Below the pieces are notes generated by a model. The model saw nothing but the letters and a program-made list of their open reading frames with translations, was not told where the DNA came from and did no database searches. This document shows, piece after piece, positions 8,004 through 19,259 of a DNA stretch of 29,654 nt. How positions within the stretch are numbered: position 1 is the stretch's first letter; the number at the start of each line of letters is the position of its first letter. This DNA is from Chlamydiota bacterium (GTDB lineage Bacteria > Chlamydiota > Chlamydiia > Chlamydiales > SM23-39): positions 1 through 29,654 of the forward strand of contig JASFVE010000015.1 of NCBI GenBank assembly GCA_050049995.1, given 5' to 3'. A program made the translations under genes and the position numbers.

Positions 8004-8086
8004 GCCGATGTGGCGGAATGGTAGACGCGGTAGATTCAAAATCTACTCTTCGCAAGAGGGTGCTGGTTCGAGTCCGGTCATCGGCA
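8004..8086 (+). tRNA. tRNA-Leu (anticodon CAA), CCA not encoded
   Basis: Acceptor stem GCCGATG/CATCGGC, D-arm TGGCGGAATGGTAGACGC, anticodon stem GTAGA/TCTAC with CAA at 8037-8039, long variable arm, T-loop GGTTCGAGTCC, discriminator A. Confidence 0.97.
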
Positions 8087-8266: not shown

Positions 8267-8581
8267 ATGACTTCACAAGTATCTATGGTAAGCTGCAGAA
8301 GATATGCTCAAGAAGAAATTGAAGAGACTTTAAAAGCATATGATGTTCTTCGCTATGATAGCGAGATTAATGCAAAAGAAATCAACAGTATATGTCTCAA
8401 AATGGGATATCTCTGTTCAGGTAACAAACAACATTATGATAGCCTAGCATCGAAATTAGTAAACCGCATTTATGCTATTACAGAAGATGAGACTGAAAGA
8501 GGGAAATTATTTTCCTATGCGAATAGAAATATTGTTATTGGAAAAAATTATGGCATCCTATCTAAAGTAGAGGGGAATTGA
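8267..8581 (+). CDS. Hypothetical protein, paralog A of a tandem pair
   Basis: 104-aa ORF with GGGGT SD; clearly aligns with the next ORF. Confidence 0.75.
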   Translation: MTSQVSMVSCRRYAQEEIEETLKAYDVLRYDSEINAKEINSICLKMGYLCSGNKQHYDSLASKLVNRIYAITEDETERGKLFSYANRNIVIGKNYGILSKVEGN

Positions 8582-8725
8582 TTAAATTTGATAGATTTTG
8601 CCCCTCAGGCAACTGGTAAACTTTTCAGTGAAGGGGGGCATGATTTAATTGTTAAAAATTCTTTTACTTCATAATCTGTGCTCTAAGTTCCATTCATTCT
8701 TTTATAGATAACAGAGGAATTGCCT

Positions 8726-9034
8726 ATGAGCTCACAGTTTTCTATGGAAACTTGCAAACTCCATTCTCAAGTAGAAATTTGGGAAGCTTTAAGATGCTAC
8801 CGTGTTAATAAATATCAGAGTATACTTGAGCAAAAAGTTAATGATCTTTGTCTAGAAATGGGGTATCTGTATAGCGATGACAAACTTAAGCTCAAAGACT
8901 TATTTCAAATGCTGACAAATCGCATTAAAGAAATTACCGAAAATGAATCTGAAAGGCTAAAATTATCGCAATATGCAGATAGAGTCGTTGTTATCGGTAG
9001 AAATTATCGTATTTCTACAAGTAATAGCTTTTAA
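8726..9034 (+). CDS. Hypothetical protein, paralog B of a tandem pair (ATG 8726)
   Basis: AGAGGA SD. MSSQFSM start aligns with MTSQVSM; shares CLxMGYL, NRIxxITExExER and VIGxNY. Confidence 0.75.
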   Translation: MSSQFSMETCKLHSQVEIWEALRCYRVNKYQSILEQKVNDLCLEMGYLYSDDKLKLKDLFQMLTNRIKEITENESERLKLSQYADRVVVIGRNYRISTSNSF

Positions 9035-9109: not shown

Positions 9110-9490
9110 ATGGCTAAGTTAGATATTCCACCTCCAGAAGGAGTCTTTCACTCTGAAAGACCTGATAATAGTGACTCATTGTCAAGAGATCTAGAAAATC
9201 ATATTAAAGATATCTTAAAAGCACATGTTAAGCCTATTATAGAAGAAAAAATTCGTGAGCTCTATCACTTCTTGCATAAACATAGACTAGATATCGAATC
9301 TATTTGTAAAAAGAATGGATGGATGCCAGGAGGAAAAAAGGATTTTCTCCATTCACTTGATCGTTCCATTGAATTTTCTCATGAATATATTACTCACTTT
9401 CCAAAGGAGAAACAAAAAGTCCTTCATGGTCAAGTAGTTGAAAGTTCAGAAGAGGTTCTTTTCTTTTTAAATAATGAATTTTCTAATTAA
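9110..9490 (+). CDS. Hypothetical helical protein (start 9110 or 9086)
   Basis: Open ORF; AAGGA SD before ATG 9110. Confidence 0.6.
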   Translation: MAKLDIPPPEGVFHSERPDNSDSLSRDLENHIKDILKAHVKPIIEEKIRELYHFLHKHRLDIESICKKNGWMPGGKKDFLHSLDRSIEFSHEYITHFPKEKQKVLHGQVVESSEEVLFFLNNEFSN

Positions 9491-9540
9491 TCTACTTTTT
9501 ATTTAACTTAATTAAGTTAATTGTTCTTTTTTAAATTAAT

Positions 9541-9568
9541 TTGTAATTAATTTCTATTTTGTTAGAAT
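9541..9568 (+). promoter_or_regulatory. Putative sigma70/sigma66 promoter for the 9642 gene
   Basis: TTGTAA-N16-TAGAAT with extended -10 TG and an AT-rich upstream region; predicted start near 9575. Confidence 0.5.
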
Positions 9569-9641
9569 AAGCCCTAGGGGGCGTGAGTTGCCACTAAAGC
9601 TTTCAAGAGCGAGCACTGTTACAAAATTAGGGGAGGGAACA

Positions 9642-10619
9642 ATGTCTGACAATCTTGAACAATCTTTTTCTCAAGGGGGATTTTCTCCTGAGAATACATC
9701 GCAAAATGTTAGTTCATCTCAAGAAGAAGTAAAAGTAAAAACAGAAACTATGGAGATGGAAACTGTTGAGCCAACAATGGATGAGCAAAGCTACTCTTTA
9801 GGAGAAGTGCCTCAAGCCTATCTGTTAGATCCTGAGATTTGCTTGCCATTAAACTCTGACACTTTAAGTCAGCCAGAAGGAAATCTTAACTCTATGGTTG
9901 ATGAAATTAATCATCACATTCAAGAGGAAGTGGCTTTAATTCAAAAACACCAAAAAAGCGTTGATTACTGGGAAGAGAGAATTGAAAAGAATAAAGCACT
10001 TATTCAGAGAAACTTTGAAAAAGCTAGAAAGAACAACGAATCTACTTCTTATGACAAAAGAAACAGAGATTATTGGTGGTCTAGAAGTGAGCAAGTAGAA
10101 TTAGATTATCAAAATGCTGAAGTTGCTTCTCGTGCTGATGAATGGTCTTGGTTGATCCGAAAATATGGTCTTAAAAACCCAGATGGTTCACCCATTGATG
10201 CTAAAAGCTCTATTGTAGAAGAACTTTGTAATGGCGGCTGTAAAAATCTTTCCATGAGATATAGAGCTAGCGGAGATAAATACGAAGAGCTTAAAAGAGA
10301 AAGAGAGCGCGAGAATGTGCAGCTTGCAAGGGAAAATGCTAAATATAAAAGTACTAACGAAACGCTTCAAAAATATGTTAGTGCAACTTATGAAGATCAT
10401 ATTGAGCCTTTACAAACTGGTATTCTGCTCTTAAAAGAGTTAGCTGCAAAGCTAAAATCTTATGTAACTCAAGATAGCAATGTAAGCTATGGCGATCTAC
10501 GAGAGTGGGCAGAGCTGTATCTCAATGAGTTTTTAAAAGATCATTCAGGTGTGAAGCAATCAGTAGTTACTGACTTTAGACGAATTGCTTCTATTCCATT
10601 ACCACCAGAAAATTGTTAA
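9642..10619 (+). CDS. Hypothetical coiled-coil protein with Ser/Glu-rich disordered N-terminus
   Basis: GGGGAGGG SD directly before ATG 9642; heptad-rich charged segments; followed by a terminator. Confidence 0.75.
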   Translation: MSDNLEQSFSQGGFSPENTSQNVSSSQEEVKVKTETMEMETVEPTMDEQSYSLGEVPQAYLLDPEICLPLNSDTLSQPEGNLNSMVDEINHHIQEEVALIQKHQKSVDYWEERIEKNKALIQRNFEKARKNNESTSYDKRNRDYWWSRSEQVELDYQNAEVASRADEWSWLIRKYGLKNPDGSPIDAKSSIVEELCNGGCKNLSMRYRASGDKYEELKRERERENVQLARENAKYKSTNETLQKYVSATYEDHIEPLQTGILLLKELAAKLKSYVTQDSNVSYGDLREWAELYLNEFLKDHSGVKQSVVTDFRRIASIPLPPENC

Positions 10620-10649
10620 ATAGTGAGGGTCGTTCGCATCTCGCTCGGG

Positions 10650-10679
10650 GGCGTAAGGGGTAACCCTTACGCCTTTTTT
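10650..10679 (+). terminator. Intrinsic terminator
   Basis: Perfect 10-bp stem GGCGTAAGGG-GTAA-CCCTTACGCC followed by TTTTTT. Confidence 0.88.
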
Positions 10680-10696
10680 ATACATGGCGGTAAATA

Positions 10697-11758
10697 ATGA
10701 AGAAAAAGATTTTCTATTTTTCTATTTTTTTAGTTTTTAAGGCACTTTGTGTCAATGAACTACAAATTATAAGCGGAATAGAGGAGTTTTTGTGTTCTCA
10801 GCAGAGTCTGCCTAAAACAGAAAGGTTTTCAGGCGCTATTCTTTTAGCAAAGAAGGGTAGAATTATATTTAGAAAAGCAAATGGCAACGCTGCTTTCACA
10901 GGAGAAGTTCCCAATAATCTAAATACCAAGTTTTATTTAGGGGCCGTAGGTGATGTATTTACATCAACTGCTATTTATCAATTAGCTCAAAAAAAGAGGA
11001 TCGCCTTAGATGACCCCATTTCTAAATATCTAAACTGTCGTTGGGGCAGCTCAAAAGCTTTTAAGGAAATTACTATTTTGCAGCTTTTGACACATACGTC
11101 AGGATTCGGAAATCTTTCTTTAAATACTAGATATAGTAAAATTTCAGACTTTCAAAAACTCATACAGAAAGAAAAACTGCATTTTTATCCTGGCTGTTCT
11201 CAAAAGTATAGTAATATTGGCTATATTTTATTGGCAGCTATTATTGAAGAGGTGAGCCAAGAAAGTTACTGCAGCTATCTTAGGAAGAATATTTTTGATA
11301 AAGCCGGGATGCATAATACTGGTTTTTATATGTCAGAGAAAAGTCATACAAATGAAGCATATGGCTACCTTTGTAATGGCACTTCACTTCAACAGTTTAA
11401 TTATGGTTTAAACAGTCTTAGCGCATTTTCTACCGTTTTAGATATGTTTTATTTTTCTCAATTCCTCCAAACAGAGCAGCTAAATGCATTTCTTCTTAAT
11501 GTCGCTACCAAGCCATCAGCTCATAGGATCAATTGCGCAAAAGGAAATTGGAATCCTTTTGGGCTTAAAATATGGAAAAGTCCAGATGTTGCAGGACTTA
11601 TGGGATCTTCTAGTGGTGCTAACGCTTTTTTAGGTATATTTTTAAAAGAGGGGTATACCTTAGTTCTTTTTGCCAATGTCTCTAATGGACAAGATGTCCA
11701 TCTCTTAAAAAAAGTATATCAATTATTAGGGTATAGTTTGCCTAACTATAATTTCTAA
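10697..11758 (+). CDS. Serine hydrolase / class C beta-lactamase-like family protein, exported, probably catalytically inactive
   Basis: Signal peptide; FSGAILLA, LDDPISKYL, ITILQLLTHTSG, YSNIGYILL. The SxxK position reads AVGD. Confidence 0.8.
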   Translation: MKKKIFYFSIFLVFKALCVNELQIISGIEEFLCSQQSLPKTERFSGAILLAKKGRIIFRKANGNAAFTGEVPNNLNTKFYLGAVGDVFTSTAIYQLAQKKRIALDDPISKYLNCRWGSSKAFKEITILQLLTHTSGFGNLSLNTRYSKISDFQKLIQKEKLHFYPGCSQKYSNIGYILLAAIIEEVSQESYCSYLRKNIFDKAGMHNTGFYMSEKSHTNEAYGYLCNGTSLQQFNYGLNSLSAFSTVLDMFYFSQFLQTEQLNAFLLNVATKPSAHRINCAKGNWNPFGLKIWKSPDVAGLMGSSSGANAFLGIFLKEGYTLVLFANVSNGQDVHLLKKVYQLLGYSLPNYNF

Positions 11759-11811
11759 ATATTTCAAATTGAAATTAATACTATTTTTTTTATAAGTGAC
11801 ATTAGAGGTTA

Positions 11812-11872: not shown

Positions 11873-12304
11873 ATGAAATCTTGGATCAAAAATGGGTATC
11901 CTCTCGTATTAGAAGTACTTATTATTATCATTTGTTTAGCAATCATTGTTCAGTCTGAAACATTTCAAGAAAAGATATGTCCTCAAAAATACTGGTCTAC
12001 TAAAGTAGACGAGTTAGAAGGAGATGTTAAGCTAGATCAGTGGAAGGTAAGATCCATAGAACTATCTCTAGAAAAAGAAAAAGCAACCGGCCATTATATG
12101 ATTCAGGCAGCTATCGATCATGCTAAATCTTTTGGAAAAGATGTAGAGAAAGTGGCGCAAACAGCTGTCAATAGCTATGAAGAAAAGCTTTCCACTCTCG
12201 AAAAAGATCTAGAAGCTTCTAAGGAAGCGCTTAGTACCCATCAATTGCAGCTTCTAAATGCAAAGCTGAAATTAGAAAATGAACAGAGATTAGTCAAAAA
12301 TTAA
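11873..12304 (+). CDS. Hypothetical N-terminally anchored coiled-coil protein
   Basis: TM segment LVLEVLIIIICLAIIV followed by heptad repeats; SD AGGGAG. Confidence 0.7.
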   Translation: MKSWIKNGYPLVLEVLIIIICLAIIVQSETFQEKICPQKYWSTKVDELEGDVKLDQWKVRSIELSLEKEKATGHYMIQAAIDHAKSFGKDVEKVAQTAVNSYEEKLSTLEKDLEASKEALSTHQLQLLNAKLKLENEQRLVKN

Positions 12305-14128
12305 GCTAAGTCCTTTTTCTAATTCTAATTTAATTTTATTTTGTTTCTCTAAGGGAATATTCTTATCATCTCGATCTTTCAAGGAAAGAACTTCTAATTC
12401 AGATGTCTGATTTAAATTAGTAGTAGGGAATTTTAAAATCATTTTATGGCTGCCGTTATGCAAGAAAAACTCTAAAGGGATTTCTCCTCCATTTTGCTGC
12501 ATAGAAAGTGCAAAGTTACACCTATGTTTTGAAAAAATTGACTGTCCATTGAAGTAGGTATCCAATACATTTGAACCAACGATCTCGTTGAATATGGTAG
12601 GAAAAATGTCAACATGGCTAGTAACAACGTTTGAGTTCGTAGCTCGATTGCTATTGAGCTTGTAAATAATAGGTACTGTTGTCTGTGGATTGTTTAAGTG
12701 AGTCCCATGAAAAAGCGCTCCATTTTCAAAAAATTCCTCTCCATGGTCTCCTGTAAAAACTAAAATCGCCTCTTCATATAGATTTTCCCGCTTTAATGCA
12801 GTAGTAGCGCGGCCTATTAAGTGATCTATATAATTAACAGAATTCTTATATCTATTTTTGATCTTATCCAACCCTTTTTTGGGATTTATTGTTAAGTAGT
12901 CAATTTCTTTTGCAATAGGATGAAATTTAGGTGTGAAATCATTATGCCAGCTATATTCTGAATGGGTTGAATCAAGAAATATAATAAAAAGGGTAGCATG
13001 GGAATTGTTTTTTAAATCTTTTGAAAAATCTTTGATTGCTTGTAGGTCTCGCTGAGGTGGGGGCTCACCAGTGGCTGTGTAATCCTTGAAAAAATCATAG
13101 ATTTTTTGACTTTCTCCAAATATTTGGTCTTGCATCTTGAAGTATTTCAAGTCTGCAGAAGTGTATACTCGAATTTGGTACCCTAAATCTTTAAGAAGCT
13201 GTAGAGGGATGGCTCCTTGTTTTTGGCTTTTATAGCTATCCCAGTGAAATGGATACATACTGGTAAATATGCTAAACCACGAATGATGAGAAGCATTAGC
13301 ATTGGCAAAGGTCATAGCAATTTTAGGGCCATTTTCTTGCAGCCTGAAAAGATTGGGAGCAATCTCAGAGGTGATATAGTCTTTCCTGAGCGTCTCGATA
13401 ATAAAAAGATAGATATTCGGCCTTTTATCAATGTGACTTGCTACTAAAGGTTTATTTAGAGTAGGTTCCTTTAATTTTTTATTAATAACAATTTTCTCTC
13501 CATTAGGGGAAAGGAAGGTCGATTTCAAAGGGAGTGTTTTTTGGTACTTCGCATGGATTTCAAAGGGTAAAAGAGATCGAGAAAAAAGATCCAATGTAAG
13601 CAAGCTAAATGCTGCGATAACAACTATTTTTCCAATCTGATTAGCGCTTAAATTTAGAGGTTTAGATTTAATGACTTTTTGTGTGATCAGATAAAACATA
13701 ACTCCGGCAAAAGGAATTATAATTACAGTTCCTATCGACAAAAGGGCCATGGTCAAATTCAAATTAAGAGAGTGAATAGCAGCAAAAAAATGGCTTACCC
13801 CGGATGTAAAAAAAATTTTGAAGGCAGATAGGATCGTTGTATCCATCAACTTAACGACGGTATAATCGGCATAGTGCGCTAAAAAAAACAAAAATAAAAG
13901 TCCTACATATGCCTTATAGGCAATAGGAGAAATTTTTTTAAAAAGAAACCCAACAAGAATAAATAGAGAGACTTCCAACAGAGCTTGCAAAGCAGAGTAA
14001 ATGGAAAAAAAAACTTTATATGGTAGATATTCACTTTGAAGAGGTAAAATATGAGATAGGCTCAGAAGAGTTACGTAGATAAGTGCACAAGAAAAATATA
14101 TATAATTTATTTCATTTTTTATTTTCAT
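12290..14128 (-). CDS. Membrane-anchored sulfatase-like/alkaline phosphatase superfamily protein (PbgA/YejM or LTA synthase-like)
   Basis: About 5 N-terminal TM helices; RPNIYLFIIETLRKD, DSTHSEY, TGDHGEEF, HVDIFPTI. Confidence 0.8.
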   Translation of the reverse strand: MKIKNEINYIYFSCALIYVTLLSLSHILPLQSEYLPYKVFFSIYSALQALLEVSLFILVGFLFKKISPIAYKAYVGLLFLFFLAHYADYTVVKLMDTTILSAFKIFFTSGVSHFFAAIHSLNLNLTMALLSIGTVIIIPFAGVMFYLITQKVIKSKPLNLSANQIGKIVVIAAFSLLTLDLFSRSLLPFEIHAKYQKTLPLKSTFLSPNGEKIVINKKLKEPTLNKPLVASHIDKRPNIYLFIIETLRKDYITSEIAPNLFRLQENGPKIAMTFANANASHHSWFSIFTSMYPFHWDSYKSQKQGAIPLQLLKDLGYQIRVYTSADLKYFKMQDQIFGESQKIYDFFKDYTATGEPPPQRDLQAIKDFSKDLKNNSHATLFIIFLDSTHSEYSWHNDFTPKFHPIAKEIDYLTINPKKGLDKIKNRYKNSVNYIDHLIGRATTALKRENLYEEAILVFTGDHGEEFFENGALFHGTHLNNPQTTVPIIYKLNSNRATNSNVVTSHVDIFPTIFNEIVGSNVLDTYFNGQSIFSKHRCNFALSMQQNGGEIPLEFFLHNGSHKMILKFPTTNLNQTSELEVLSLKDRDDKNIPLEKQNKIKLELEKGLSLIFD

Positions 14129-14203: not shown

Positions 14204-15211
14204 ATGTTACGCATATTTTGTATTATTCTTACTTTTTTTTCATTTGCAGCCCATACAGCTGAGAAACAAGATGTCCTTATTTTAGGAGGTGGAGTAGGTG
14301 GGGTCAGCGCAGCTATCTACTTGGCAAGGGCAGGCTATAAGCCTATTGTGATTGAAGGGAAAAATCCTGGTGGACTTATTTCTCAATCCCATCTGGTACA
14401 AAACTGGCCTGGCGAAAAAGAAATCGCAGGTTACGATTTGTTCATTAAGTTAAAAGAGCAGGCAGAAGCGTGTGGAGCTGTTTTTTATTCTGAATCGGTA
14501 AAATCGGTAGACTTTTCTAAAAGACCATTTCAAATCATTACAACCAGCACTTCTAAGGAAGATACAGAAAAAAAATATTTAGCAAATAGCTGCATTATTG
14601 CCATGGGTACCACTCCTAATTTTCTGAACGTTGAAGGAGAAAAGACTTATTGGGGAAAAGGAATAACCAACTGCGCTGTTTGTGATGGGCCTCTTTACAT
14701 AGGGAAAACAGTTGGCATAGTAGGTGGTTCTGATTCTGCCTTAACTGAAGCAGAATATTTATCAAAGCTTGCTAAGAAAGTGTATATATTTGTTCGAAAA
14801 GATAAGTTTAGGACTGTTGAAAAAGAAAGAGAGAGCAGCGTTCTTGCCAAAGACAATGTTGAAGTTTTATTTAACACGGAAGTAAAGAAAATAGTCGGAG
14901 ATGATGCTCGGCTGCAGAAAGTAGTTGTGCAAGATCATGGCGCTTTAAAAGAAGTACAATTAGATGGGTTATTTTTAAGTATAGGCTCAAAGCCCAATAC
15001 AAAAATTTTTCAAAATCAGCTTAAGTTAGATGAAATAGGCTATATTGCTTTAAGACCTCAAGAGTATCAGCAAACTTCAGTAGAGGGGGTTTATGCAGTA
15101 GGAGACATAGTGGATCCTGTTTTTAAACAAGCAATTACTGCAGCTGGAGATGGGGCAAGGGCAGCCTTGAAAGTTAAGGGGTTTTTGGCTGAGAAGAATC
15201 GCCAGCTTTAA
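14204..15211 (+). CDS. trxB: Thioredoxin-disulfide reductase family flavoprotein with N-terminal signal-like peptide
   Basis: FAD motif ILGGGVGGVSAAIY, redox CAVC (NCAVCDG), TSVEGVYAVGD, QAITAAGDGARAA. Confidence 0.82.
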   Translation: MLRIFCIILTFFSFAAHTAEKQDVLILGGGVGGVSAAIYLARAGYKPIVIEGKNPGGLISQSHLVQNWPGEKEIAGYDLFIKLKEQAEACGAVFYSESVKSVDFSKRPFQIITTSTSKEDTEKKYLANSCIIAMGTTPNFLNVEGEKTYWGKGITNCAVCDGPLYIGKTVGIVGGSDSALTEAEYLSKLAKKVYIFVRKDKFRTVEKERESSVLAKDNVEVLFNTEVKKIVGDDARLQKVVVQDHGALKEVQLDGLFLSIGSKPNTKIFQNQLKLDEIGYIALRPQEYQQTSVEGVYAVGDIVDPVFKQAITAAGDGARAALKVKGFLAEKNRQL

Positions 15212-17105
15212 AAATTACATCGAAAGCTTCTTTGAACTCTTGCCAAACGAAACTTGGAGTTTCTTGAGGGTTTTTGACTATATTTTGTTCATTTTGATCT
15301 TTAAGCCCAATAATTTGCAGCTCTTTTGATCCAAAAATATTTTTCCTATTTTTGAATCTGGCAATTAGTTTGTATTTTCCATTATGCAGGAAAAACTCAT
15401 AAGGTGTTCTGCTTGCGTTGTATCTAGCAGTTAAAGTATATGCCCATTTAGATTTCTCAAAAATAGAATCTCCTTCTAAAAGGTCTGATAAAATGTTTTC
15501 TCCGAAAATATAGTCAAAAATACTGGGGAAAATTTCCATATGGCTTGCCAACGCTGTATTAGGAATTGTTCGATCCATCATTTTTCCAAATTTGTAATAC
15601 AAGGGAACATGTGTTTGTTCTTTAACAAGTTCAGAGCAATGAAACATATGGCCATGTTCCATAAATTCTTCACCATGGTCTCCCGTTACAACAATTACCG
15701 CGTCTTCATATGCTTGTTGGTTTTTGAGACTTGTTATGAACTTTCCAAAAAGATGGTCTACAAAATGCACGGAGTTTCGATAACGGTTTTTAATCATCTC
15801 AATATCCTGATCGCTATGATGAGCTTTAAAGTAACTAAAGTCATTGGAAATAGGTTTAAATTTTAAAGGGAAGTCTTTAGGCCAGCTATAGTCAAAGTGA
15901 GTAGAGTCCCAAAAAAAGATATGGATATTTCCTTCAGGCGACTGCTTAGATAAATATTCTTGAAACTTGGTAATGGTCTGACTGTCGGAATCGCATGCTT
16001 TTACAGGGTAATAATGGGGAAATAAGTGAAAGTGATCTACCAACTTCCTATTATTGCCAAAAATAAGCTCTTCCATTCCATAATAAGATAATTGTGCAGA
16101 AGAATAGACATGAATTTTATAGCCAAGCTTTTTCAAAATTTTCAAAGGGATGCTTCCTTCTGATCGGCTAGAATTTTTTGCTTCAGACCAATAGAGGGGA
16201 AAGTTTGCATGAAAAATAGAATACCAAGAAAGATGTGTTCCATTGCCTCCTGAAAGCGATAAGTCAAAATGAATATTTTCTTGCTTGAACTTTTCTAAGT
16301 TAGGTGAGTTTTTGTCATTGACAAAGTCTTCCCTAAAGCTTTCTATAATAAATAGATAAATGTTAGGTCTGTGAGGAGGAGTAAAAGTAATTTTTTCTAC
16401 CTTTTCAAGTACTAGCTCTTCTTTCTGTAGCTTTTTGGGGGGATAATTTACTGTAAGCCAAATGCTTTTAGGTTGTAAAAATGTTTTTTTCCAGGGAAGT
16501 GACTTTAAGTAAGAGTTATAATCATTGGCATTTATTATACCAGATGCAGAAAAGTCCCATATAAAAAGAGCGATAGGAAGGCAGAAAAGACCCTGTAAAA
16601 AAGCATTTTGGCGCATGAAAATAGGTCTTTTCCTAGAAAGCTTTCCTGTTAGGAGATATATGCCATACCCTAAGACAGGCATTAGTAAAATTCCAATCCC
16701 CATAGCAATCCAAATCATTAAAGGGATGCCAGAAGCATGCAGCATTTCAATAAAGTTTTCAAAGCTTTCATCTAGGACAAAATCTATCGTATCTAAAAAA
16801 GTCATATCCAATATCCTAGCCATAATAAAGTCTATGATATGGGTCAGGAAATAAAGAAAAGTTAGCCCGATAAAAATTGGTAAAAAAACCTTAGGTAGAT
16901 ACTTTTGAATGAGCCATGCACAGCAGATCATAAGGCCTATTTCTAGAAAAGACTGTCCCAGTGAATACAATAAGAAGAAAATCCTTGAACTGGAGATGGG
17001 GTCTATAGTTAGAAAGTTGAAGATAGTAAGTGAAAATAAAATGCCAAACAGCAAAGAAAAGTATACCCAATTAAAGGGGAACTTGGGGGGCGGGGTTCCT
17101 TCCAT
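15174..17105 (-). CDS. Membrane-anchored sulfatase-like protein (PbgA/YejM or LTA synthase-like), paralog of 12290..14128
   Basis: TM N-terminus; RPNIYLFIIESFRED, GNGTHLSWYSIF, DSTHFDY, TGDHGEEF. Confidence 0.8.
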   Translation of the reverse strand: MEGTPPPKFPFNWVYFSLLFGILFSLTIFNFLTIDPISSSRIFFLLYSLGQSFLEIGLMICCAWLIQKYLPKVFLPIFIGLTFLYFLTHIIDFIMARILDMTFLDTIDFVLDESFENFIEMLHASGIPLMIWIAMGIGILLMPVLGYGIYLLTGKLSRKRPIFMRQNAFLQGLFCLPIALFIWDFSASGIINANDYNSYLKSLPWKKTFLQPKSIWLTVNYPPKKLQKEELVLEKVEKITFTPPHRPNIYLFIIESFREDFVNDKNSPNLEKFKQENIHFDLSLSGGNGTHLSWYSIFHANFPLYWSEAKNSSRSEGSIPLKILKKLGYKIHVYSSAQLSYYGMEELIFGNNRKLVDHFHLFPHYYPVKACDSDSQTITKFQEYLSKQSPEGNIHIFFWDSTHFDYSWPKDFPLKFKPISNDFSYFKAHHSDQDIEMIKNRYRNSVHFVDHLFGKFITSLKNQQAYEDAVIVVTGDHGEEFMEHGHMFHCSELVKEQTHVPLYYKFGKMMDRTIPNTALASHMEIFPSIFDYIFGENILSDLLEGDSIFEKSKWAYTLTARYNASRTPYEFFLHNGKYKLIARFKNRKNIFGSKELQIIGLKDQNEQNIVKNPQETPSFVWQEFKEAFDVIFKAGDSSQPKTP

Positions 17106-17879: not shown

Positions 17880-17959
17880 TAAAAAAATAACTTACCCTTC
17901 ATTTATTGTGTTTTTTATCAAAATAATTTAAACTTGTTCATTTAAAAAACTTTTTAAAT

Positions 17960-18044
17960 CACCAGGGGTGCTTTACAGCTGAAAAAACCATATTTGGTTT
18001 AACCCTTATAACCTGATCCGGATAATACCGGCGGAGGAAGCGTG
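17960..18044 (+). promoter_or_regulatory. TPP (THI-box) riboswitch
   Basis: AGGGGTGC...GCTGAAA...ACCCTT..AACCTGATCCGGATAATACCGGCGGAGGAA matches the THI-box consensus; P3a-type hairpin AAACCA/TGGTTT. Confidence 0.9.
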
Positions 18045-19259
18045 CATATCAAAAAAAAACTTTTTATTGGTTTTGTCGGCAATTTTTTAGAGCACTATGA
18101 CCATGCGCTTTATGGTTTTCTGGCTCCTGTTTTAGCTAAAATTTTCTTATTTCAAGAAGATTATACCTCTTCCTTATTATGGATTTTTATGATGTATCCT
18201 TTAGCTTTACTGCCTAAAATCATTGGGTCTGTTTTTTTTGGCTTTATAGGAGATACAAAAGGAGCAAAAAAAGCTTTGAGTATGTCCTTAAATGGTATGG
18301 CTATAGTCACTGTTTGCATCGGGTTGATACCTTCTTATCAATCTATTGGGATAATCGCTCCTTTCCTGCTGTTCTCACTTAGACTCTCCCAAAGTTTTTT
18401 TACATCATCTGAAACTGTAGGGGGGGCTATTTTTCTATTAGAAGAAGAAAATAAAATAGAAAAAAATATCTTAAGCAGCATGTATGATATGTCAAGCATT
18501 GCAGGAATATTTTTAGCATCTTTTTTAATAAGCATATTTAGTTATTTTGGAATCTTAGATACTCAATGGAGAATTCTTTTTTTCATAGGAGCTATCACAG
18601 CTTACCTTGGGTATCTTGTACGAAGAACGGATGAAATAAGCTATAAGAAGAAAGAAAAAAGTCAAAATATAGCTATTATTCCATTTTGTACAATAATTGC
18701 CGTGTCTGGCCTTTCTCATGCTATTTATAACATCATTTTTGTTTTTATGAATGGATGGCTGTCAACCATAGCTTCGATAAATATTTCGAATGTTTTTATG
18801 ATGAATAACTTTTTGTTAGTTTTAGATTTTGTTCTACTCCCTGTTTTTGGGTTTTTGGCCTCCAAATATTCAAAAGAAAAAATCATGACAACAGCCCTAC
18901 TTTGTATCTGCTTATTTTCACTTCCTTTATTTGCCTTACTACAATCAGGGTCTTTGATAGTTATTTTTCTTGTGAGAGTATTATTGGTAATAGCGGGAGT
19001 ATCTATTAGCGCTCCGTTTTATCACTGGGCCATTAGCATTACCCCTAAGCATGCACGTTTTAAAACCTTAGGATTAGCTTATGTAATAGGTTCTCAAATA
19101 ATTGGGAAAAGTGCTCCAGCCGTTAGTCTTTTTCTTTTTTCCAAAACTAAATGGGTAGTAGCTCCGGGAATTTATCTTCTTGCAGTAGCTTTAACAGCTT
19201 CTCTTTTTTTGATGTATTTGAGGATAAGGCAGAGGTTGATGGATAAAGCACTTCCATAA
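18042..19259 (+). CDS. MFS transporter (MHS/ProP-like), probable thiamine-related uptake
   Basis: GNFLEHYDHALYGFLAP, FGFIGDTKG, about 12 hydrophobic segments; directly under the TPP riboswitch. Confidence 0.85.
   Translation: MHIKKKLFIGFVGNFLEHYDHALYGFLAPVLAKIFLFQEDYTSSLLWIFMMYPLALLPKIIGSVFFGFIGDTKGAKKALSMSLNGMAIVTVCIGLIPSYQSIGIIAPFLLFSLRLSQSFFTSSETVGGAIFLLEEENKIEKNILSSMYDMSSIAGIFLASFLISIFSYFGILDTQWRILFFIGAITAYLGYLVRRTDEISYKKKEKSQNIAIIPFCTIIAVSGLSHAIYNIIFVFMNGWLSTIASINISNVFMMNNFLLVLDFVLLPVFGFLASKYSKEKIMTTALLCICLFSLPLFALLQSGSLIVIFLVRVLLVIAGVSISAPFYHWAISITPKHARFKTLGLAYVIGSQIIGKSAPAVSLFLFSKTKWVVAPGIYLLAVALTASLFLMYLRIRQRLMDKALP

Follow-up and report, generated by a model that had tools for sequence, protein, structure and literature searches.

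The window analysed here is a stretch of 29,654 nucleotides on the forward strand of a chlamydial contig (JASFVE010000015.1), from a genome whose family we take to be SM23-39. One of its genes, encoding a protein of 325 amino acids, sits between its own predicted promoter and its own predicted terminator (Table 1). As pointed out in a first-pass annotation of this DNA, both untranslated regions are GC-rich islands in AT-rich surroundings, the GC content being 0.50 for the 5′ UTR and 0.58 for the 3′ UTR, while the coding sequence has 0.36, the upstream DNA 0.16 and the downstream DNA 0.25. Since this promoter scores highest in the whole genome with a matrix derived from 30 other homologs (27.1, the next site scoring 19.4), and the gene ranks 43 of 1292 in codon bias, high expression is likely. 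When the leader is added to the promoter matrix, the locus stands out even more in the genome G000 (44.7, with the next match at 18.8). The following gene is a different one in most homologs, namely a methyltransferase-like ORF.

Table 1. Features of the studied locus (window coordinates).
Feature	Position	Strand	Basis and remarks
Predicted sigma-70-type promoter	9541..9568	+	TTGTAA, 16 nt, TG-n-TAGAAT; consensus scan; conserved across homologs
Predicted first transcribed bases, purine-rich GGCG leader	9576..9587	+	12-bp complement of the terminator 3′ arm and U tract
Predicted local 5′-terminal hairpin (9577-82 with 9599-9604)	9577..9604	+	P ~0.5, full-length fold from 9575
5′ strand of predicted long-range helix	9606..9624	+	Full-length fold
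Shine-Dalgarno (SD) sequence	9630..9637	+	Sequence; outside the helix at this locus
CDS of the 325-aa family-restricted protein	9642..10619	+	
Spacer between stop codon and terminator, 3′ strand of the predicted helix	10619..10646	+	Alternative: local hairpin when folded alone
Predicted intrinsic terminator	10647..10679	+	13-bp stem, U tract, conserved GGCG/CGCC base
Downstream beta-lactamase-family (PF00144) gene	10697..11758	+	Possible read-through target; not conserved as neighbour

Reuse of the same pair of UTRs around other ORFs was considered and rejected, as each of five UTR pieces of the locus occurs once in G000 and the matrix gap is wide. A direct repeat left by a mobile element or a target-site duplication was also discarded: the gene is single-copy, it keeps the neighbour downstream in most cases, and no match turned up in phages or plasmids.

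Other features of the window deserve a record. On the plus strand, a tRNA gene (8004-8086) is followed by two ORFs of 104 aa (8267-8581 and 8720-9034), which resemble tandem paralogs and have no Pfam family above cut-off. A second promoter-like site (~11767-11796, score 16.7), with an upstream motif of the TTGAAATTAA type, precedes a 143-aa coiled-coil ORF at 11873, and a TPP riboswitch (17954-18057; Rfam RF00059, 71 bits) lies directly 5′ of a 405-aa transporter-like ORF at 18042. Two similar membrane-anchored sulfatase-like genes on the minus strand (12290-14128 and 15174-17105) surround a thioredoxin-reductase-like ORF, all labels being given by inspection; in homologs, a related gene often comes next after the studied gene. 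Elsewhere in G000, contig C30 carries on its plus strand two near-identical promoter-SD-ATG cassettes ~385 nt apart (~17575 and 17960) with short ORFs, possibly tandem small-protein units.

The protein and its relatives

The gene had been described as an orphan, which is wrong: 153 homologs were found among 1325 candidates. Most of them share ~50% identity with the 325-aa protein, and one, 98% identical, carries the source name Chlamydiae hypothetical protein. One copy each of the gene is present in 52 of 103 genomes from the window's chlamydial family, and in an order-wide sample of 400 genomes it has a match in 22 of 49 family members, whereas the 350 genomes of other families gave only one weak match of 57 residues. 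A profile search of 1.84 billion representatives returned 28 matches, including a spurious one to a plant repeat protein.

No Pfam or NCBIfam match above cut-off was found for the protein, the Atlas gave no usable match, and the gene neighbours offered no functional clue. In the AlphaFold2 model (pLDDT 85), disorder at the N-terminus extends to about residue 55 and is followed by two antiparallel long helices (81-162 and 192-277) and short C-terminal helices. With this model, Foldseek returned nothing at E ≤ 0.001, and VIA-align, restricted to model residues 73-282, only generic coiled coils. The top weak Foldseek rows correspond to the B component of an alpha-pore-forming toxin, with a best E of 0.03 and a best Z of 10.5 that is common to generic coiled coils, and the protein has no strong hydrophobic segment. 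There is no clear transmembrane helix either (median best 19-residue hydropathy 0.97), and no longer fused form appeared among 7997 candidates, which is weak evidence. The disordered N-terminus is acidic and rich in Ser and Glu, and it would fit, as a guess, a secreted or structural protein.

Complementarity of the two untranslated regions

According to the first-pass annotation, the two UTRs pair in nested order through five pairs of segments. All five are present at the coordinates given there, adding up to 38 base pairs, nine of them G-U, with one mismatch. The raw duplex of 9570-9640 with 10610-10680 reaches -46.0 kcal/mol; dinucleotide-shuffled sequences give -34.0 ± 4.4 and do as well in 7 of 1000 cases, and the duplex thus surpasses shuffled controls in this raw form. 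The advantage is lost after subtracting the folding of each end on its own, where the net gain is -9.2 against -7.0 ± 3.5 (238 of 1000 as good; shuffling the 5′ part alone gives 54 of 1000). Because this net gain is not beyond the shuffles, the end pairing judged from this locus alone is suggestive, not decisive, and its support comes from the comparison with homologous sequences.

The same net energy speaks for a rival explanation, where the GGCG-type motifs of the leader, the 5′ stem-loop and the terminator would be retained independently of one another, be it through promoter function, local hairpins, a repeated protein-binding motif or simple inheritance, and the GC-rich ends would pair in silico with no selected long-range helix behind them. 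We regard such a by-product as possible, though on the unlikely side. A first point against it is the bias for one strand. The interaction had been attributed to a plus-strand RNA rather than to a DNA inverted repeat, in agreement with the energies of the two strands (-45.6 for the plus strand and -30.7 for the minus strand). This bias extends through the family (-11.1 vs -9.2), and is absent in control genes (-6.9 vs -7.0).

The comparison was based on 88 distinct homologous loci with a stop codon, 64 of them with both a promoter match and a terminator, from which 41 representatives below 75% protein identity were taken; single tests dropped one to four of these (short spacers or unfolded), leaving 37-40. 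The 150 control loci were taken from five genes (dnaK, groEL, rplS, an NTT-like and a CesT-like gene) in 44 genomes belonging to this family, with subsets of 111 loci with a terminator and 88 with a distinct spacer of at least 10 nt, and genes of G000 with terminators served as further controls. The homologs share a layout of promoter, leader, 5′-terminal hairpin, strong SD (frequently preceded by another GC-rich element), short spacer after the stop codon (median 21 nt in the family) and strong terminator. In many of them (e.g. L008, L011 and L013) a conserved near-palindromic GC element, CGCTCGCSAGGCG, stands just before the SD; its possible partners are the leader and the start-codon region, and it is absent at the window's locus.

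In the predicted fold of the full-length mRNA from the window, positions 9607-9620 pair with the spacer with probabilities of 0.79-0.99 at 13 of the 14 positions, and of 0.53 at 9618. This inner helix is bulged and adopts two registers (P 0.57 and 0.39). The terminator keeps a probability of 0.95 in the same fold, so that helix and terminator are predicted to coexist. Opening the ribosome-binding site (RBS) costs 5.86 alone and 5.96 in the closed form, and pairing of the 3′ UTR with its own SD was not found at this locus, where the RBS-spacer z is -0.42.

Conservation is much higher in the spacer than in the coding sequence: over five loci of two subclades, 30 of the 31 nucleotides of 10619-10649 are invariant, with coding sequences 67% identical (ungapped) and different terminators. 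The sole substitution, G10632/T, fits the partner base in each subclade, and GAGCGAGC, within the 5′ strand of the helix, shows no change between them. The near-invariant spacer would be captured by different 5′ segments, 9606-9622 at the window's locus and the first 15 nt of the transcript in L044. This conservation, next to a terminator that changed in a compensatory way, argues against a mere by-product. A look-alike of a T-arm in the spacer was rejected by inspection, its stem being unpaired and its closing G lost in L044.

Across the family, at least 5 bp are closed between the 5′ UTR and the spacer in 19 of 37 representatives, against 2 of 18 genes of similar size from G000 (Fisher p 0.007), in full-length folds that left out four representatives and one control and in which the controls are AT-richer; about half of the representatives (18/37) stay under 5 bp. 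Duplexes of RBS and spacer of -15 kcal/mol or better occur in 8/39 representatives and in none of 88 control loci, the UTRs of the target being richer in GC than those of the controls (0.41 vs 0.27-0.39), and most homologs form weaker ones. The mean z of this duplex against shuffled spacers is -0.64 (p 0.003), compared with -0.16 in controls (p 0.03 between groups), in a test conceived post hoc, after viewing the loci, as one of about ten related ones on genomes that are related and not independent. The rplS controls also have a negative z (p 0.04 in the RBS-spacer test, 0.005 in a second test).

On the whole, 5′ ends pair better with their own 3′ ends than with swapped partners of the family when the net pairing is considered (p 0.0036, or 0.0009 with the predicted transcript starts), and this excess is confined to the studied gene family, with p values of 0.28-0.91 in the five control families, which again weighs against a by-product. 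The raw duplex of the region from -55 to +6 with the spacer gave no such difference (p 0.19). Anti-SD 5-mers are not enriched (11/39 representatives, 21/88 controls). Helices of 17-21 bp over the RBS, made of unrelated sequences, are predicted in L009, L116 and L118, and long unrelated RBS helices in several clades speak against a by-product; pairing that covers the RBS is likewise predicted in relatives such as L008, L071 and L124.

Taken together, the own-partner excess, the RBS-spacer duplexes and the full-length folds bear out the proposal that the two UTRs of this gene family are complementary beyond what control genes display. By their sequences, the homologs keep the capacity to pair without one fixed helix, as both register and position vary, and the weak column-wise covariation follows from the lack of a single conserved helix. 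In the folding models, the RBS of relatives is often covered by the pairing, and that of the window's locus is not. Three other genes of G000 (C18:6571-7767, C91:1887-2936 and C1:29295-29684) also have pyrimidine-rich spacers after the stop codon, the first two with 11 and 8 bp closed with their own upstream regions in full-length folds.

The transcript start and the terminator

A second match links the two extremities of the transcript. A purine-rich leader of the RRRCG type lies at the predicted start of 32 of 39 representatives, and the 3′ arm of the terminator ends in CGC or CGCC in 18 of 40, in comparison with none of 111 control terminators. The match of the transcript's 5′ end to the terminator base noticed in the window is thus a family-wide one. 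In 21/39 representatives (54%) 7 bp or more are formed between the 3′ arm and the first 13 transcribed bases, a proportion that falls to 8.9% with control arms and only to 49% with swapped arms of the family (own-partner p 0.003). Covariation of leader and arm is significant when G-U pairs are included (p 0.003) and not for Watson-Crick pairs only (p 0.12), most pairs being invariant or wobble and the anchors building in pyrimidines.

The by-product explanation finds evidence here too. Swapped partners are nearly equal to own ones, the leader C is locally paired in 28 of 33 representatives, five of the seven leaderless representatives still end their terminator in YG(Y), and the RGGCG motif is repeated at +1, before the SD and in the 5′ arm of the terminator.

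At the window's locus, the helix of leader and arm (9577-9583 with 10670-10676) resembles the acceptor stem of tmRNA or tRNA-Ala, with a G-U at the third pair, when set beside the tmRNA ends of G000. A G-U at this position of the acceptor stem is the identity rule of tRNA-Ala and tmRNA. In the present case it is explained by the U tract, no CCA end is encoded, and the tmRNA is located separately in the genome.

The first-pass annotation had seen the end-to-end duplex as mutually exclusive with the terminator. As the main state, this is not supported by the predicted folds, where the terminator has a probability of 0.95-0.97 and the form in which the leader captures the arm one of 0.03. The exact panhandle first drawn amounts to -40.0, the best leader-captures-arm form to -45.3 and the terminator fold to -48.5. 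A switch would nevertheless have some basis: the helix could zip outward from the spacer, taking first the 5′ arm of the terminator and then its 3′ arm, and result in antitermination into the next gene or in a fully closed rod. At the window's locus, the terminator form beats the leader-captures-arm form by no more than 2-3 kcal/mol, the terminator-melted form lies within 6 kcal/mol in 13 of 40 representatives (11/111 controls), and the CGC/CGCC ends of the 3′ arm, absent from control terminators, would suit it. Against the switch stand the probabilities of the two forms in the window, a terminator-melted form that is 9.9 kcal/mol higher in the median of 40 representatives with no difference between own and swapped partners (p 0.54), and a downstream gene that differs between clades. 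During transcription, moreover, a local hairpin should win kinetically. We thus consider the switch improbable, and as a family-wide melting of the terminator into a rod, or a general choice between terminator and panhandle, it is not supported. One representative, L099, is predicted in its full-length ensemble as a complete rod, with the terminator melted and a leader-arm helix of 11 bp; this case favours the switch and is the best one to test it. As far as the compared sequences tell, the end-to-end match is real and conserved, and mutual exclusion with the terminator does not describe the family in general.

The annotation had also raised the idea of a structured RNA, or an intervening sequence, with an ORF in its loop, which is not supported, as 9450-10800 has no Rfam match at E ≤ 1 and the register of the helix varies between homologs. 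A related proposal is that of a processing stem cut by RNase III, which would release or circularise the ORF, or of a type I toxin-like module, where a toxic protein would be kept silent under an antisense RNA. The RNase III gene is indeed present, and a long-distance interaction between 5′ and 3′ ends is described as a hallmark of type I toxin mRNAs such as hok and aapA (PMC8594479, in part). The likeness resides in complementary 5′ and 3′ extremities with alternative folds. The studied gene, in contrast, encodes a soluble-looking protein of 325 aa from an mRNA of ~1100 nt, far from the 20-60 aa and 150-400 nt of type I toxins, and it is chromosomal, single-copy and family-restricted. In a consensus scan, antisense promoter-like sites (score of at least 10 of 12) occur in only 2/41 representatives near the 3′ end and 1/41 near the 5′ end, and are not conserved. 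The lack of a clear transmembrane helix, flanks that are not rRNA, tRNA or any Rfam family, the absence of phage or plasmid matches, and helices that are short and bulged point in the same direction, and make such a module very unlikely.

A message predicted to fold back on itself

Because its two untranslated ends are complementary, the message is predicted to fold back on itself. In the reading that we favour, with a probability of roughly 0.55, the finished mRNA would close into a loop, the spacer pairing with the 5′ UTR and the terminator remaining intact, and this closure would tune decay and translation. The helix could form only after the 3′ end has been made, that is, after transcription. 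At the window's locus it would lie just upstream of the SD, where it could shield the leader from an enzyme of the RNase E/G type or offer a substrate to RNase III; an effect on decay is the likely one here, since the helix is upstream of the SD and the cost of opening the RBS is practically unchanged. In many relatives the helix would cover the SD and the start codon and thereby damp initiation. Its start at the stop codon or close to it means that ribosomes, on terminating, would open it, and closure would mainly affect untranslated messages. Through partial strand exchange, the first transcribed bases and the terminator base that they match would contribute a few extra end-to-end pairs, with the terminator not dissolved. 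Genes for RNase III and RNase E/G are present in G000 (98% complete), where RNase Y and RNase J were not found.

Only a few bacterial mRNAs with a documented 5′-3′ UTR interaction are named in excerpts of a review: RNAIII, icaR, hbs and the mRNAs of type I toxins (PMC7821165). The closest to the window's locus is the hbs mRNA of Bacillus subtilis, where a 14-nt segment of the 5′ UTR is reported to pair just upstream of the terminator, which stays in place, and to affect the access of nucleases (PMC5737220, in part). In both cases the complement of the 5′ UTR lies just upstream of the terminator, which at the studied locus is predicted to stay as well; there a helix of 14-17 bp would form just upstream of the SD, as in hbs. 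The hbs helix, however, is fully complementary, whereas that of the studied locus is bulged, has two registers and shifts its position between homologs. The hbs helix is also described as acting against RNase Y, with RNase J1 downstream (PMC5737220, in part), and neither enzyme was found in G000. Besides, according to the review excerpts 3′ UTRs of this sort, that of hbs among them, are not conserved in close relatives (PMC7821165), whereas the pairing capacity of the studied family persists across ~50% protein identity.

A second parallel is found in icaR of Staphylococcus aureus, whose 3′ UTR is reported to pair with its own SD (PMC3868564, in part), and in the long-range folding between aSD and RBS that serves as a comparison system (PMC12697547, in part). 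The likeness applies to relatives such as the six mentioned above, where a 3′ element is predicted to pair with the RBS of its own message. It does not extend to the window's locus, where the SD is outside the helix, and the 3′ UTR of the studied family differs from that of icaR in being short, starting at the stop codon and having no fixed anti-SD motif. The best reading of the folding models would be a 5′-3′ UTR interaction of the hbs/icaR type with an unusual evolutionary turnover. By analogy with the hbs and icaR mRNAs, closure is likely to tune stability and translation.

A more speculative extension, which we see as a long shot, would turn the mRNA into a latch that senses translation. 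Each terminating ribosome would open the helix at the stop codon and keep the 5′ end open, and an untranslated message would close into an end-protected loop, exchanging its first bases into the base of the terminator. Such a loop would keep an abundant message silent and in store during the dormant chlamydial stage, and the full rod would be a read-through state in some lineages. Chlamydial elementary bodies are reported to carry mRNA (PMC1894823, in part), and nothing links the studied gene to such mRNA.

A literature search of incomplete coverage found no UTR interaction in chlamydiae and no mention of this gene family. What would be new in the favoured reading, the closure of a finished message with an intact terminator, is that the capacity to pair persists while the sequences and the position of the helix turn over, from upstream of the SD to over the SD or to the very 5′ end. 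The locus draws attention to a likely highly expressed, uncharacterised and lineage-specific chlamydial protein, and its family offers a natural series of ~40 variants in which mRNA closure may be tested in a bacterium whose ribonucleases include RNase E/G and RNase III.
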